Origin: a virus | Taxonomy: Duplodnaviria > Heunggongvirae > Uroviricota > Caudoviricetes | DNA length: 18,579 nucleotides | Reading direction: 5' to 3' (one strand) | Virus record (IMG/VR): IMGVR_UViG_3300039366_000108 | Part shown: positions 766 to 7,303 of the stretch, one piece after another | Layout of the letters: every line of letters starts with the position of its first letter | How positions within the stretch are numbered: the stretch's first letter is position 1 | Notes under the pieces: generated by a model | What the model was told of the DNA's origin: nothing | Seen by the model: the letters and a program-made list of their open reading frames with translations, nothing else | Database searches by the model: none | Translations under genes and position numbers: made by a program

Positions 766-833
766 NNNNNNNNNNNNNNNNNNNNNNNNNNNNNNNNNNN
801 NNNNNNNNNNNNNNNNNNNNNNNNNNNNNNNNN
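766..833. other. Run of 68 N (assembly gap or masked sequence)
   Basis: Seen directly; it removes the 5' flank and first two nucleotides of the tRNA. Confidence 0.95.
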
Positions 834-907
834 CGATATAGCTCAGTTGGTAGAGCAGCGCATTCGTAATGCGAAGGTCGTAGGTTCGACTCCTATTATC
901 GGCACCA
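832..907 (+). tRNA. thrW: tRNA-Thr (anticodon CGU), thrW-like; first 2 nt fall inside the N-run
   Basis: Visible 834-907 reads CGATATAGCTCAGTTGGTAGAGCAGCGCATTCGTAATGCGAAGGTCGTAGGTTCGACTCCTATTATCGGCACCA, with D-loop, anticodon loop containing CGT, T-loop GGTTCGA and CCA end; location just downstream of proA. Confidence 0.85.
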
Positions 908-909
908 TT
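891..909. repeat. attL core: tRNA 3'-end segment tcctattatcggcaccatt, repeated at attR
   Basis: 18 of 19 nt identical (one G missing) to 17775-17792. Confidence 0.55.
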
Positions 910-998: not shown

Positions 999-1073
999 GT
1001 ACCCCAAAATCTACAGTCAATTGGGGGTACTTTTGGGGGTATTTGCTGTTCGGTTTAGTGGAGGTACCCCCAA
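999..1073. promoter_or_regulatory. Left arm-type site cluster: GTACCCCAAAA (999-1009), TTGGGGGTAC+TTTTGGGGGTAT (1021-1042), inverted GTACCCCCAA (1064-1073) abutting the int start
   Basis: Repeated GGGGGTA-containing motifs in both orientations between the tRNA and the int start codon; the identical 22-mer recurs at 17693-17714. Confidence 0.5.
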
Positions 1074-2288
1074 GTGAAACTCAATGCCCGTCAAATAGAC
1101 ACTGCCAAGCCAAAAGAGAAGGCTTACAAGCTGGCTGATGGTGGTGGTCTGTATCTCTTGGTAAAACCTAGTGGAGGAAAATATTGGCGCTTCAAATATC
1201 GTGTAGCTGGTAAAGAGAAGCTGTTAGCACTAGGTGTGTATCCTGAAGTTACCTTGGCTGATGCTCGTGCAAAACGTGAAGAAGCTAAAAGGGGGATCGC
1301 TGGGGGTATCGATCCGATGGAAGCGAAACGAGAGGAAAAGATTGCCCGGGAAACGCAGTTAAACAACACCTTCAAAGATATTGCCCTTGAGTGGCACAGC
1401 AGCAAATTAAAAAAATGGTCTGCTGGTTATGCTTCAGACATCCTCGAAGCCTTCAACAAAGATGTGTTCCCTTACATTGGCAAAAAACCAATCGCCGAAA
1501 TCAAACCACTTGAACTGCTGAATGTGCTGCGGCGCATCGAGGGGCGCGGTGCTACCGAAAAAGCCAAAAAAGTGAGGCAGCGATGCGGGGAAGTTTTCCG
1601 CTATGCAATTGTCACTGGACGTGCTGAGTATAACCCTGCACCGGATCTCACCAGCGCGATGCAAGGTCATGAATCTAATCATTATCCTTTCCTCACAGCC
1701 AAAGAATTACCTGATTTTTTCAAGGCATTGTCCAGTTACTCAGGAAGTGCATTGGTTGTTATGGCGGCTCGTCTACTGATTATCACCGGTTTGCGGACTG
1801 GCGAACTGCGCGGTGCATTATGGGATGAAATCGATCTCAACAAGGCTATCTGGGAGATACCTGCTTCACGGATGAAAATGCGTCGCCCTCATGTGGTGCC
1901 TTTGTCTAAGCAGGCTCTTTCGCTTATTGGGCAGATTAAAGAATTAACTGGCAATTATCCGCTTATGTTTCCCGGCCGTAATGATCCAAGGAAAACAATG
2001 AGCGAGGCTAGCATAAACCAAGTATTTAAACGCATCGGCTATAACGGAAAGGTTACTGGTCATGGATTCCGGCACACCATGAGCACCATTTTGCATGAGC
2101 AGGGCTATAACACCGCGTGGATAGAGACACAGCTCGCACACGTCGATAAAAACTCAATTCGTGGCACATACAACCATGCGCAATATCTGGATGGTCGCCG
2201 GGAGATGCTCCAGTGGTATGCCGACTATATGGATTCGCTCGAGCATGGCGGAAATGTGGTGCATGGTGAGTTCGGAAAATGCGGGTGA
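1074..2288 (+). CDS. Tyrosine recombinase/integrase, P4-type (IntA-like)
   Basis: GTG start 9 nt after GGAGG; N-terminal arm-binding-like region (KLADGGGLYLLVKPSGGKYWRFKYR); C-terminal catalytic motifs HGFRHT...LAH...RGTYNHAQY; transcribed away from the tRNA. Confidence 0.9.
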   Translation: MKLNARQIDTAKPKEKAYKLADGGGLYLLVKPSGGKYWRFKYRVAGKEKLLALGVYPEVTLADARAKREEAKRGIAGGIDPMEAKREEKIARETQLNNTFKDIALEWHSSKLKKWSAGYASDILEAFNKDVFPYIGKKPIAEIKPLELLNVLRRIEGRGATEKAKKVRQRCGEVFRYAIVTGRAEYNPAPDLTSAMQGHESNHYPFLTAKELPDFFKALSSYSGSALVVMAARLLIITGLRTGELRGALWDEIDLNKAIWEIPASRMKMRRPHVVPLSKQALSLIGQIKELTGNYPLMFPGRNDPRKTMSEASINQVFKRIGYNGKVTGHGFRHTMSTILHEQGYNTAWIETQLAHVDKNSIRGTYNHAQYLDGRREMLQWYADYMDSLEHGGNVVHGEFGKCG

Positions 2289-3634: not shown

Positions 3635-4483
3635 ATGAAACAGCGAAAAACGCCCGTACAGGGGCAGGGCTTCGTTCGGCCTGAAAACCAGAATCTGCAA
3701 AATTTCGGCGAAATTATCCCGGTTATTTCCGGCGTTATTGGCGGACGTGAAACCAATATTGTTAGCGCCAGAGCGTTGCATAAGGCGCTGGGTGTGAAGC
3801 GTGATTTCACAACCTGGATTAAAGGACGCATTGATGAGTACGGATTTAAAAAGGGCGTGGATTTTGAAGTTGTAGATAATTTGTACTTTGATTCCCCGAA
3901 ACGGGGGAACCAAAGTGTAAATATTGAACAGTTTGATTTTGATTGGACAACAAAGCGCGGCGGTGATCGTCGCAGTGAAGACTATTTGATCTCCACGAAC
4001 ATGGCGAAAGAACTGGCGATGGTCGAGCGCACCGAACAGGGCCGCGCCGTTCGTCAGTACTTCATCAAATGCGAGGAGGAGCTACACAAGGTAGCGCCAG
4101 TGCGTTCCGCAGCGTTACGCCGGGAACTGAAAGCCCGTATCTCCGTTGCCAGCTACTTTAAGCCGATGTGTGCCGCGCTGGAGGCGTACCGGGCTGAACT
4201 GGGTAAAAACACACTCCAGCACCACTACACCACGGAAGCCAATATGCTGGCGCGTATCGTGCTGGGTGGCATGACTGCAAAACAGTGGACGCAGGCGAAC
4301 GGCATCACAGGCGAACCACGCGACCACATGAGCACGTTGCAGCTTGAGCACCTTTCTTACCTTGAGCAGAGCAATATCACGCTGATTGAGTTAGGCCTGG
4401 ACTACCACCAGCGGAAAGCTGAATTAATTCGTCTTTCGCAGCGTTGGTTAGCCCGTCGCATGGAGGAAAACAGCCATGTGTAA
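3635..4483 (+). CDS. Phage antirepressor-like protein (AntA-like N-terminus, KilA-C-like C-terminus)
   Basis: SD AGGAG 5 nt upstream; FTTWIKGRIDEYGFKKGVDF motif (AntA-like) and DYLISTNMAKELAMVERTEQGRAVRQYFIKCEEEL (KilA-C-like). Confidence 0.7.
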   Translation: MKQRKTPVQGQGFVRPENQNLQNFGEIIPVISGVIGGRETNIVSARALHKALGVKRDFTTWIKGRIDEYGFKKGVDFEVVDNLYFDSPKRGNQSVNIEQFDFDWTTKRGGDRRSEDYLISTNMAKELAMVERTEQGRAVRQYFIKCEEELHKVAPVRSAALRRELKARISVASYFKPMCAALEAYRAELGKNTLQHHYTTEANMLARIVLGGMTAKQWTQANGITGEPRDHMSTLQLEHLSYLEQSNITLIELGLDYHQRKAELIRLSQRWLARRMEENSHV

Positions 4484-5155
4484 CGCTCTGACCGTTACAA
4501 AAAGAGAAAGCGCCCCGTTGCCGGAGCGCCTTTGTGAACGAATAGCCTACTGCGCCATATTGCTTACTGTCTACGAGGCAGATTATAGCGTTGTGGTCGC
4601 ACAGAGTGAAGGCGCTGATCACCGTTACTACAGCACGCCAGAAATGCAGAATATTTTGCTGCAAAATGTCGTTGGTCACGCTGTCCGGAAAGCAAAAAAT
4701 TTTGCTGGTGGCGCGACTGATGCGATTTTGTCAGGTCGCAAGGTGATGATCAATCTGATGTCTAATTTCGTTCTGGATAAAACAAAGGCGACCGCAGAGG
4801 GCCACCAGTGGGAAAGCTACACACTTGAACACATCGCCAACAATGCCAGATTTGCGGCTGGTGGGCAATGTGATCAGTGTGCTGGCTTGCTGGTGGGCTA
4901 TTCCTGCTCTTTAACATTGCCATGCCGCGATGTTTTCCAGGTATGCGACCCCATTTTTGTGCGCCTGTACTCTTTAAGGAATTTCTCAAGGATAAACGCA
5001 CAGGGCGCGAATCTGTCTGACTCATATTCGTACGTTATCTTTCTGCGCTGTCTTTTCCGTGCCGGTGATGGTGTATTGGTCGATTCTTTGTTGGTCATTC
5101 TGTGTACCTGTAAAGCAATGCGCCGGAGTTCCTCACACCACGGCGATGATAGTTA

Positions 5156-5461
5156 TTATTCTGATTCTTTGGCCTTGCGGCGCTGGAGTTCTTCACGTGC
5201 GACGGTGACGAGCTGCCCGATCTCCTCGACAGCTTTGACTCCGATTTTTTCCACCTGCGCCAGTGCATTGAGCGAAGAAACCAGGGGATTTTCTCCGCTT
5301 CCTTCTGCCTGGCGGCGGGCGATCTCACCACGCATGGCGGTTACTATGAATCCGGCGTTGCTTTCGCCGTCCAGTTTTACGGATTCCATGCCTTCAAAAG
5401 CATCATGTGGGATACGAATTGAAATCTGTTTTGATTTGTCGTTGATAGTGTTTTTTGCCAT
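5156..5461 (-). CDS. Putative ribbon-helix-helix DNA-binding protein (candidate repressor), 101 aa
   Basis: Strong SD AGGAGA 7 nt before ATG (MAKNTINDKSKQISIRIPHDAFEGMESV...); beta-strand-helix-helix-like N-terminus; divergent from the rightward operon with operator dyads between. ORF track start at 5500 is probably too long. Confidence 0.6.
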   Translation of the reverse strand: MAKNTINDKSKQISIRIPHDAFEGMESVKLDGESNAGFIVTAMRGEIARRQAEGSGENPLVSSLNALAQVEKIGVKAVEEIGQLVTVAREELQRRKAKESE

Positions 5462-5483
5462 GTGCATTCTCCTAAACAAAAGA

Positions 5484-5560
5484 TGTGATTCAGTATACAC
5501 AAAAAAGAATCACAAAAAATACTTGACCTGTGATTCAGTTAAATTTAATTTAAATCACAC
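5484..5560. promoter_or_regulatory. Operator/promoter region: four TGTGATTC half-sites in alternating orientation, overlapping a candidate rightward promoter (TTGACC 5523-5528, TAATTT 5546-5551)
   Basis: TGTGATTCAG at 5484-5493 and 5529-5538; inverted GAATCACA at 5507-5514 and AATCACAC at 5553-5560; about 23 bp periodicity. Confidence 0.45.
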
Positions 5561-5648
5561 CTCAGTAAGAGGATATAAACGACAACGCCCCGAACTGTTT
5601 GCGGCAGTAGCGGGGCGTCTAACCAAACCGTTAAATGAGGTAACGATT

Positions 5649-6014
5649 ATGGCTGGGGCACAGCATACCCAAACTCACCCTAAATTTATATACACCTTCC
5701 TGGCGGTGCACCGTGATTGCATGGCTGACGGTAAAAACACTGTTCATGTAGCCGCCGATACGCTGGTTGATGCCTGCGAGATGCTCAATGACATGGGCTA
5801 TATCTCGGCAACATGGAAAGGGCGCGAAGAAAACACGTTGTTTATTCAGAAATGCGAAAACAATTTTATCTGGCGTTTTATCGCCCTGAGTACGGCACAA
5901 CCGCGCGTGATTCACATCGAGGCCACCAGCGAACAGGAAGCACGCCAGCAATCTCCTGATGGCTGCGTGATGGTATTCGCTGCCCGTATTCGCCAGGAGG
6001 TGGAGCATGTGTAA
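5649..6014 (+). CDS. Hypothetical protein, first gene of rightward operon (121 aa)
   Basis: SD GAGGTAA upstream of ATG; stop overlaps next start (ATGTGTAA). Confidence 0.55.
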   Translation: MAGAQHTQTHPKFIYTFLAVHRDCMADGKNTVHVAADTLVDACEMLNDMGYISATWKGREENTLFIQKCENNFIWRFIALSTAQPRVIHIEATSEQEARQQSPDGCVMVFAARIRQEVEHV

Positions 6015-7012: not shown

Positions 7013-7303
7013 ATGAAAAAGAAAAATTCTGGCTTTACTGCCAGCGGCCTCTCTCGGCCTGAAATCCGCCCCGGTGATATTTTCCGGGACACCAGACGCG
7101 GGGGACGGGTGGTTATTCGTCACGTTACGCCAGGCAATATCACCTACCGCCGTGAGGCTTACGAATATGACTGCGTAATGCCGCGCCGTCAGTTTGAGCG
7201 TGATTTTATTCTGGTGGAAAACAAACAACAGGCAGTGGCGAGACGTGCAGCCACGAATATTAAAAAAATCCGGGCAATGTTGGTTGCGGGAGGTAAGAAG
7301 TGA
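7013..7303 (+). CDS. Hypothetical basic protein (96 aa)
   Basis: SD AGGAAAA upstream; stop overlaps primase GTG start (GTGA). Confidence 0.55.
   Translation: MKKKNSGFTASGLSRPEIRPGDIFRDTRRGGRVVIRHVTPGNITYRREAYEYDCVMPRRQFERDFILVENKQQAVARRAATNIKKIRAMLVAGGKK

Follow-up and report, generated by a model that had tools for sequence, protein, structure and literature searches.

What purpose is served by identical repeats that lie just inside both ends of a chromosomal island, with an inverted copy placed directly before the start codon of its integrase gene? This question is raised by the virus record IMGVR_UViG_3300039366_000108, a stretch of 18,579 nucleotides which was analysed at its full length and is called the window in the following. 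The window corresponds to Escherichia coli chromosome and contains the last part of proA (21-716), followed by masked bases (N) and the tRNA gene thrW, whose 3' end harbours an inserted island of 16.9 kb. The original prediction had proposed that the repeats are integrase arm-binding sites on both sides of the crossover core and that they might also regulate the integrase gene, int. Our analysis supports the first part of this proposal, based on the arm-binding domain of the integrase, the corresponding layout in P4, KplE1 and Sf6, and the co-variation of the motif between the island ends and with the N-terminal domain of the integrase. We assign a probability of about 0.85 to the reading that the island's own P4-family integrase (Int) binds the repeats as arm-type (P and P') sites. 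We infer the binding of Int and the role of the sites in recombination from what was observed, namely the layout, its conservation, the co-variation of motif and N-terminal domain and the agreement of the two ends.

Repeats at the two ends of the island

A 22-bp repeat had been described at 1021-1042 and 17693-17714. Both copies read TTGGGGGTACTTTTGGGGGTAT, and the identity is one base longer than claimed, as the 23-bp sequence ATTGGGGGTACTTTTGGGGGTAT occurs exactly twice, at 1020-1042 and 17692-17714. With up to three mismatches, the 22-mer matched twice in the window and not once in 200 dinucleotide shuffles. Each 22-mer is in turn a tandem pair of 10-mers with a period of 12 bp, TTGGGGGTAC followed by TTGGGGGTAT. 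Six matches to the 10-mer with at most one mismatch were found in the 18.6 kb (expected 0.98, shuffle maximum 4), all of them at the ends of the island and no more than 165 bp from the cores of the attachment (att) sites. The predicted arm sites are located 61 bp and 111-164 bp from the cores, in both arms, on element DNA outside attB, and their motif TTGGGGGTAY differs from the core TCCTATTATCGGCACCATT.

Of the two inverted copies that had been reported, the one at 1064-1073 proved to be exact: GTACCCCCAA is a perfect reverse complement of the first 10-mer and lies between the Shine-Dalgarno (SD) sequence GGAGG (1060-1064) and the GTG start codon (1074). The other, at 999-1009, is present but imperfect, since GTACCCCAAAA contains four C instead of five and matches at 9 of 10 positions; as a conserved arm site it did not hold up (see below).

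The layout is conserved while the motif switches

The comparison was extended to 80 fetched loci which encode Int relatives with 61-100% identity from many Enterobacterales genera; counts refer to the window and 79 of these loci. In 67 of the 80 sequences, a pair of 7-mers with an exact 12-bp period was detected about 50 and 38 nt before the start codon, together with a reverse complement at most 12 nt from it. The same arrangement of a pair plus an inverted copy occurred in 10 of 4000 shuffled upstream regions. Conservation in homologous elements, whose absence the original prediction had named as one refuting result, was observed. In most of the relatives listed, and also in P4 and Sf6, the inverted copy is held 0-4 nt from the start codon.

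The motif itself falls into groups, namely GGGGGTA (n=37, including the window), GGGGGCA (n=21), TGTATAG (n=8) and a few others, here referred to by GTA, GCA and TGTATAG. Within a locus, the copies switch as a set, so that direct and inverted copies read GGGGGTA/TACCCCC, GGGGGCA/TGCCCCC, TGTATAG/CTATACA or GGGGGCC/GGCCCCC. An E. coli locus with a 71%-identical integrase, for example, carries TTGGGGGCATAAGTGGGGGCAT and ATGCCCCCAA. The two ends agreed in all ten elements that were seen whole: the window and loci L090 and L091 with the GTA type, L089 and P4 with the GCA type, the viral contigs L184, L103, L138 and L202 (in thrW or another tRNA gene) with the TGTATAG type, and Sf6 with a motif of its own. 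The viral contigs were scanned with TGTATAGNNNNNTGTATAG, which mostly returned chance matches; a full-length Int relative was present at 8 of 120 loci, and four of these gave both ends. thrW elements whose cargo is unrelated become similar at the right end from approximately the repeat onward (17690-17707).

These data bear on the idea that the repeats have no function and are due to chance or are a relic of the recombination that created both ends. The shuffle statistics for the 10-mer and the 22-mer argue against it, as does a layout which is kept while the motif changes across genera, also in P4 and Sf6. Furthermore, distances of 61 and 111 bp separate the repeats from the duplicated core, which places them outside the crossover duplication. 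We consider this possibility to be practically negligible.

Two further matches were examined as arm sites and rejected. The imperfect copy at 999-1009 is not kept even in 92%-identical E. coli relatives, which read GTCCCTCAAAA, and in L002, L004, L003, L091 and most of the 80 relatives the position is occupied by a TCTAT unit followed by TTGAAA. It is unconserved and aligns with a unit of a different repeat (RTCTAY). The sequence CCCCAAG at 920-926, near the core, was discarded, as relatives of the GCA class do not carry it in the GCA form.

Outside these positions, an additional arm-like copy that the first reading had missed was detected within int (codons Ala-Gly-Gly-Ile). It is kept in most close relatives, and in-gene copies were observed elsewhere in the other motif groups, at +159 (GTA), +70 (GCA) and +51 on the minus strand (TGTATAG). 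Across many genera, the sequence that separates P'2 from the inverted site (1043-1063, TTGCTGTTCGGTTTAGTGGAG) is kept as TGTTCGGTCTAG or GGTTCAATGAAA, and nothing that we tested explains it.

The motif class follows the N-terminal domain of Int

Residues 3-88 of Int match the Pfam family Arm-DNA-bind_3 (PF13356, 3.6e-29), followed by Phage_int_M and Phage_integrase. The N-terminal domain also matches solved arm-type binding domains of island integrases, 3JU0 (1e-27) and 3JTZ. Over 405 aa, Int is 43% identical to P4 Int (BLASTP 2e-117), and it shares 49% identity with the IntS-type integrase of Sf6, HK620 and KplE1.

The identity of residue 50 tracked the motif group in every sequence, being Leu in 37 of 37 GTA, Arg in 21 of 21 GCA and Met in 8 of 8 TGTATAG sequences; residue 29 is Leu in the GTA group versus Glu or Gln in the GCA group. 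In a neighbour-joining tree of Int from residue 96 to the end, the motif groups are interspersed. The integrases of L020 (GTA) and L021 (GCA) are 92% identical after residue 95 compared to 70% in residues 1-60, and P4 Int shows 74% identity to N-terminal domains of the GCA class and about 40% elsewhere. The motif thus follows the N-terminal domain and not the rest of Int, which indicates that this domain and the sites travel together, independent of the catalytic part. Taken together, the conserved layout, the switching of the motif as a set, the tracking by residue 50 and the agreement of the ends argue that the repeats are integrase arm sites.

The following points weigh against this conclusion or limit it. 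The relatives share descent, and raw conservation counts therefore overstate their independence. The class tree was built by quick neighbour joining and carries no support values. Finally, an AlphaFold model of the N-terminal domain (no alignment), which places residues 29 and 50 in beta strands, is of low confidence (predicted local distance difference test, pLDDT, 55) and was used for strand positions only, so that the location of the two residues on the DNA-contacting sheet is an indication only. That they face the DNA is suggested by the lambda/Tn916-type arm-binding fold.

L020 and L021-L023 share nearly the same DNA upstream of the arm pair and differ in the arm motif (GTA vs GCA) and the N-terminal domain, which points to a recombination junction at the arm sites. 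The N-terminal domain of Int and the arm sites may be regarded as a putative exchangeable specificity module, a reading that we find more likely than a second, RNA-level use of the inverted site (see below). If it is true, residues 29/50 (L/L, E-or-Q/R, L/M) would read positions 6-7 of the site, and tandem islands at one tRNA gene would have orthogonal integrases. From the comparison, a testable specificity rule for P4-family integrases also emerges, in which residue 50 is Leu with GGGGGTA, Arg with GGGGGCA and Met with TGTATAG.

A protein other than Int could in principle bind the repeats, such as an AlpA-type factor, the replication protein of the island or a host factor. According to passages of PMC6092414 and PMC11773190, AlpA-family proteins bind repeated att sites in related elements, and AlpA is needed for the excision of phage-inducible chromosomal islands (PICIs). 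However, the motif group follows the N-terminal domain of Int even where the rest of Int and the DNA just upstream are those of another lineage, and close AlpA homologues occur with all three motif groups, so that the AlpA type does not track the arm group. The homologous repeats of KplE1 are mapped arm sites of IntS (PMC2951348), and the replication iterons of the island (GGTAGACAGTT, 9133-9474) differ in sequence. A better AlpA candidate is also available in the window, the RTCTAC repeat class. An alternative binding protein is therefore extremely unlikely.

The RTCTAC units of the window lie in attL only. The relatives contain three to four units of this type with a period of about 10 bp, and these change together within a locus (TCTAC, TCAAC, TCCAC, TCCGT). 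A close AlpA homologue accompanies the TCTAC type, and loci of the TCAAC type have a distant homologue or lack one. The units follow the AlpA type loosely and are, as a first lead, candidate sites of an AlpA-type excision factor. The AlpA-family protein of the island is a candidate recombination directionality factor and activator.

Comparison with known integrases and proposed attP organisation

The principle is the same as in phage lambda with its heterobivalent Int, where the N-terminal domain of Int binds arm sites (P1, P2 and P'1-P'3) that are unlike the core sites, integration host factor (IHF) aids bridging and an Xis-type factor sets the direction. The island differs from lambda in the family of the arm-binding domain (Arm-DNA-bind_3 here) and in the numbers and orientations of the sites. 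In addition, lambda int is not transcribed from within attL (PMC2951348), and the lambda arm sites therefore do not overlie the int promoter.

The closest cases are P4 and the IntS sites of KplE1. The P4 record (NC_001609), read in the direction of int, annotates copies of an 'attP arm sequence repeat': two in tandem, then the core at a distance of 53 bp, another tandem pair 112 bp further on, and finally an inverted copy that covers the int start; the corresponding spacings in the window are 61 and 111 bp. One arm of P4 contains GGGGGCAC-AAAA-GGGGGCAT and the other TTGGGGGCATAATTGGGGGCAT followed further on by GTGCCCCCAA-ATG-AAG-CTC. As in the window, the inverted copy (3915-3926) directly precedes the MKLNARQ start. 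P4 has a second in-frame ATG upstream, and its inverted copy is therefore annotated as coding. The likeness extends to an annotated arm repeat inside the gene, an AlpA/Vis-type factor, 67% identity of Int in the first 60 residues and a motif that is one base apart (GGGGGCA in P4, GGGGGTA here). P4 differs in its target tRNA and core and in having Glu29 and an Arg aligned with residue 50 compared to L29 and L50 here, and the host element here is a PICI-type satellite and not P4.

In Sf6, TGGGTAAAATA occurs twice at 57 bp from the core, and a pair is located 114 bp beyond it, followed by two inverted copies, the last of which (790-798) overlaps the ATG. The Sf6 inverted copy TTTTACCCATG corresponds to P'3 of the window. 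The Sf6 repeats correspond to the IntS sites P'1-P'4 of KplE1, where the mutated element is the common TAAA (Panis et al. 2010, PMC2951348). The IntS systems of KplE1, HK620 and Sf6 resemble the island in that the tRNA gene and int share one orientation and int abuts attL. They differ in their unrelated motif GGGTAAAA, in having four P' sites (two of them inverted) compared to three here, in the target argW, in the directionality factor (TorI versus an AlpA-family protein) and in a strong mapped promoter (TTGACA / TAAAAA) where none is recognisable in the window. IntI of pathogenicity island (PAI) I-536 is likewise a P4-like E. coli island integrase and has an IHF site in its promoter region (PMC7286903); its target is selC, and arm sites are not described in PMC7286903.

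Judged from sequence, all testable features of the P4-family attP layout were found in the window, that is, a P4 Int homologue, tandem sites with a 12-bp period in both arms, and an inverted copy where int translation starts. In the excised circle, attP would be composed of the P1-P2 pair (17693-17714), 61 bp with an IHF-like site, the core, 111 bp with the three RTCTAC units, the P'1-P'2 pair (1021-1042), 21 bp, the inverted P'3 (1064-1073) and the int start codon. The N-terminal domain of Int would bind the five 10-bp sites, and its C-terminal domains would bind the core in the thrW 3' end. Bridging of arm and core sites, together with DNA bending, would then build the integration intasome (attP x attB) and, with the AlpA-type factor, the excision intasome (attL x attR).

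The IHF-like site between the P sites and the core matches 12 of 13 positions of WATCAANNNNTTR and is probably a genuine IHF site; in L005, the perfect consensus AATCAATTGGTTA is found at the same place. A 25-mer of the replication origin, AAAAATCATTAATTATCAATGTATT (9340-9364), matches the P-arm sequence AAATATCATTAAATATCAATGTATT (17734-17758) at 23 of 25 positions, and both contain TATCAATGTATT. This likeness may reflect a common host-factor site or chance in AT-rich DNA.

A literature search on the motif returned only unrelated primer matches, and one on arm sites of P4-like integrases gave no account of the sites of this thrW integrase. The residue-50 rule, the exchange of N-terminal domain plus sites and the second repeat class are modest additions. 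The layout itself is already known; the accepted picture of such integrases is unchanged and the feature is an ordinary one. In practical terms, it would constitute the functional att site of a thrW satellite island that is widespread and carries anti-phage cargo (GapS1 here). The analysis provides exact borders, five probable Int sites, candidate excision-factor sites and a probable IHF site, which may serve as a basis for integration vectors or the prediction of excision.

Expression of int

The genes thrW and int are co-oriented, and int lies directly beside attL. Its GTG is the first start codon of the open reading frame (ORF), which is preceded by an in-frame stop (1056-1058), and aligns with the M/V/L-KLNARQ start of all relatives. 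The P' arm extends up to the start of int, and Int occupying P'1-P'3 would therefore also cover the int promoter, 5' leader and ribosome site. By homology to the systems described below, Int at these sites probably lowers transcription of int, which corresponds to negative autoregulation.

In KplE1, the int promoter is located in attL, P'1 overlaps the -10 element, transcription begins 28 nt ahead of the ATG, and IntS represses its own promoter (PMC2951348). Repression of the own promoter has also been described for P4 Int (Piazzolla et al. 2006, as cited in PMC2951348) and for IntI of PAI I-536 (Chitto et al. 2020, PMC7286903), and in all three cases the autorepression is transcriptional. A weight-matrix scan yielded TTGAAA-18 nt-TACATT/CATAAT as the best sigma-70-like match in 34 of the 80 sequences, with the -10 element between the direct copies. 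The use of GTG, a non-ATG start, fits a low level of Int synthesis.

Several results speak against this regulation. In the window and its closest relatives, the TTGAAA -35 element is replaced by CCAAAA, and a consensus scan of 700-1300 found no promoter on the + strand. The weight-matrix scan yielded only weak candidates in the window, of which the best-scoring is TATAAT at 951-956, which has a poor -35 element and lies far upstream. Moreover, no single P' mutation relieved repression in KplE1 (PMC2951348), which implies that the inverted copy alone may not be an operator. On balance, we consider autoregulation in this element, which the original prediction had raised as a possibility, somewhat more probable than its absence; it may act by occlusion or as a roadblock.

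The position of the inverted copy over the ribosome site also allows a different explanation, in which the selected feature is an RNA hairpin. P'2 (or P'1) would pair with the inverted copy, hide the region from the SD sequence to the start codon and control translation of int, leaving the repeats in the DNA as a by-product. Indeed, in a transcript that contains P'2, 1032-1044 are predicted to pair with 1062-1074 at -26.5 kcal/mol, and the co-variation of direct and inverted copies fits a stem equally well. Long leaders are possible from TATAAT 951-956 or from read-through of thrW, after which no terminator was found in a scan of both ends. A transcript starting after P'2, however, is predicted to be free of structure over the ribosome site, and for a sequence of this composition the fold is not exceptional (z = -1.56; an equally good fold in 12 of 200 shuffles), with the complementarity confined to the arm motif. 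Transferred to the homologous Sf6 sequence, the mapped IntS start (28 nt before the ATG) lies inside the direct pair or just behind it, so that the native mRNA would lack the 5' half of such a stem. No leader RNA family was matched in Rfam at a permissive threshold at either end, where only the tRNA was found. A hairpin can explain neither why an identical pair that co-varies is present 16.7 kb away at the far end, downstream of everything, nor the link to Int residues 29 and 50. As the primary function of the repeats it is thus very unlikely, and as a secondary use it is possible.

A combination of both functions can be envisaged, in which the inverted site acts as Int site P'3 on DNA and pairs in RNA with P'2 when transcription enters from upstream, either by read-through from the strongly expressed thrW or from TATAAT 951-956. 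The ribosome site would then be free only in transcripts that start within the Int-repressible pair, and int would be insulated from outside transcription, which would explain why the inverted site is held 0-4 nt from the start codon. We regard such a double use as unlikely. The interpretation of the repeats as arm sites of Int is the basis for the designations in Table 1.

Table 1 Features of the island ends and associated genes in the window. Positions are those of the 18,579-nucleotide stretch; site names P and P' are predicted.
Feature	Position	Strand	Remarks
thrW, tRNA-Thr(CGU)	832-907	+	Integration target; 3' end carries the attL core; ARAGORN, Rfam tRNA 60.7 bits
attL core TCCTATTATCGGCACCATT	891-909	.	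Repeated at attR; direct comparison with 17776-17793
Three RTCTAC units	925-930, 989-994, 1009-1014	+	Between core and P' sites
Imperfect inverted copy TTTTGGGGTAC (four G)	999-1009	-	Probably no functional arm site
P'1 arm-type site TTGGGGGTAC	1021-1030	+	Conserved, co-varying; position corresponds to IntS P'1 and the P4 annotated repeat
P'2 arm-type site TTGGGGGTAT	1033-1042	+	12 bp after P'1
P'3 arm-type site, inverted, GTACCCCCAA on + strand	1064-1073	-	Between SD GGAGG and GTG start
int, P4-family tyrosine integrase, 404 aa, GTG start	1074-2288	+	
Extra arm-like copy CTGGGGGTAT	1300-1309	+	Inside int; uncertain function
AlpA-family gene, 65 aa	3359-3556	+	Pfam Phage_AlpA 2.4e-19; PHROG 'excisionase and transcriptional regulator'; 37% identity to P4 Vis/ORF88
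P1 arm-type site TTGGGGGTAC	17693-17702	+	Homology among otherwise unrelated thrW elements starts about here
P2 arm-type site TTGGGGGTAT	17705-17714	+	
IHF-like site TATCAATGTATT	17747-17758	+	Between P sites and core
attR core TCCTATTATCGCACCATT	17776-17793	.	One G fewer than attL

Insertion site and gene content of the island

An identical stretch is present in E. coli K56-43-un, where a tRNA-Thr is annotated after proA. The masked run between proA and thrW comprises 68 N (766-833) and hides the region of the thrW promoter as well as the two initial tRNA bases. In insert-free E. coli genomes, the right flank is matched from 17776 on, with the tRNA directly adjoining. The attR core (TATCGCACC) is one G short of the tRNA copy (TATCGGCACC), and the same was observed in L005, L007, L184 and L103. 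As far as these sequences indicate, the one-G difference is a fixed difference between attP and attB and not decay. Since attR lacks this G in every element seen, strand exchange can be placed to the right of it, within CACCATT.

In addition to the tyrosine integrase and the AlpA-family protein, the island encodes a D5-type primase (7300-9105), whose gene precedes iteron-like repeats, as well as AntA-type, ProQ-like, PerC-like and small-terminase-like proteins (the last from ORF 12765-13310) and a member of the GapS1 family (15403-17001). Genes for virions or lysis were not found among its annotated genes (Pfam, PHROG, RefSeq locus comparison). By its gene set, the island is a Gram-negative PICI-type satellite, as it combines int, alpA, a primase/replication gene followed by an iteron origin, a size in the class of about 15 kb and a lack of virion and lysis genes. 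Directly 3' of the D5-type primase gene, at least eight GGTAGACAGTT-like units occur in both orientations at 9133-9474, and these would represent the expected iteron origin of such a satellite.

Passages of PMC6092414 and PMC11773190 describe the Gram-negative PICIs EcCICFT073 and EcCIMP1, which share with the island int, alpA, antA, a D5-type primase followed by iterons, perC, a length of about 15 kb and the lack of structural and lysis genes. EcCIMP1 is located in the thrW region, in the interval from proA to yagU, beside a MarR/Vat island, as in the K56-43-un locus. According to the same passages, EcCIMP1 needs alpA in order to excise, and helper-phage induction and packaging have been shown for EcCIMP1 and EcCICFT073. 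The island differs from them in its cargo (GapS1 here), and arm sites are not described in these passages.

The cargo slot beside attR varies between elements, with GapS1 in the window, an AAA ATPase and a DUF4435 protein in L090 (550-2506) and an Abi protein in L091 (2747-3724). With its probable anti-phage genes, this slot looks like a defence hotspot. Tandem elements were observed at thrW in some strains: in L001 (34621-34956), this PICI is followed by an integrase remnant and then the MarR/Vat island, and in L090 (16371-33000), a lambdoid prophage adjoins a PICI whose int is split by IS3.

An ORF of 512 aa at 4476-6014 has no annotation in the identical RefSeq locus, where two short minus-strand genes and a partial Icd-like pseudogene are annotated. 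Only its last 50 or so residues match Icd-like/repressor PHROGs. Just 3' of the small-terminase-like ORF, CGCGAAAAAGTGTCAA occurs in two exact copies and one 81% copy (13311-13326, 13373-13388, 13500-13515), and these repeats may represent a packaging or regulatory site.

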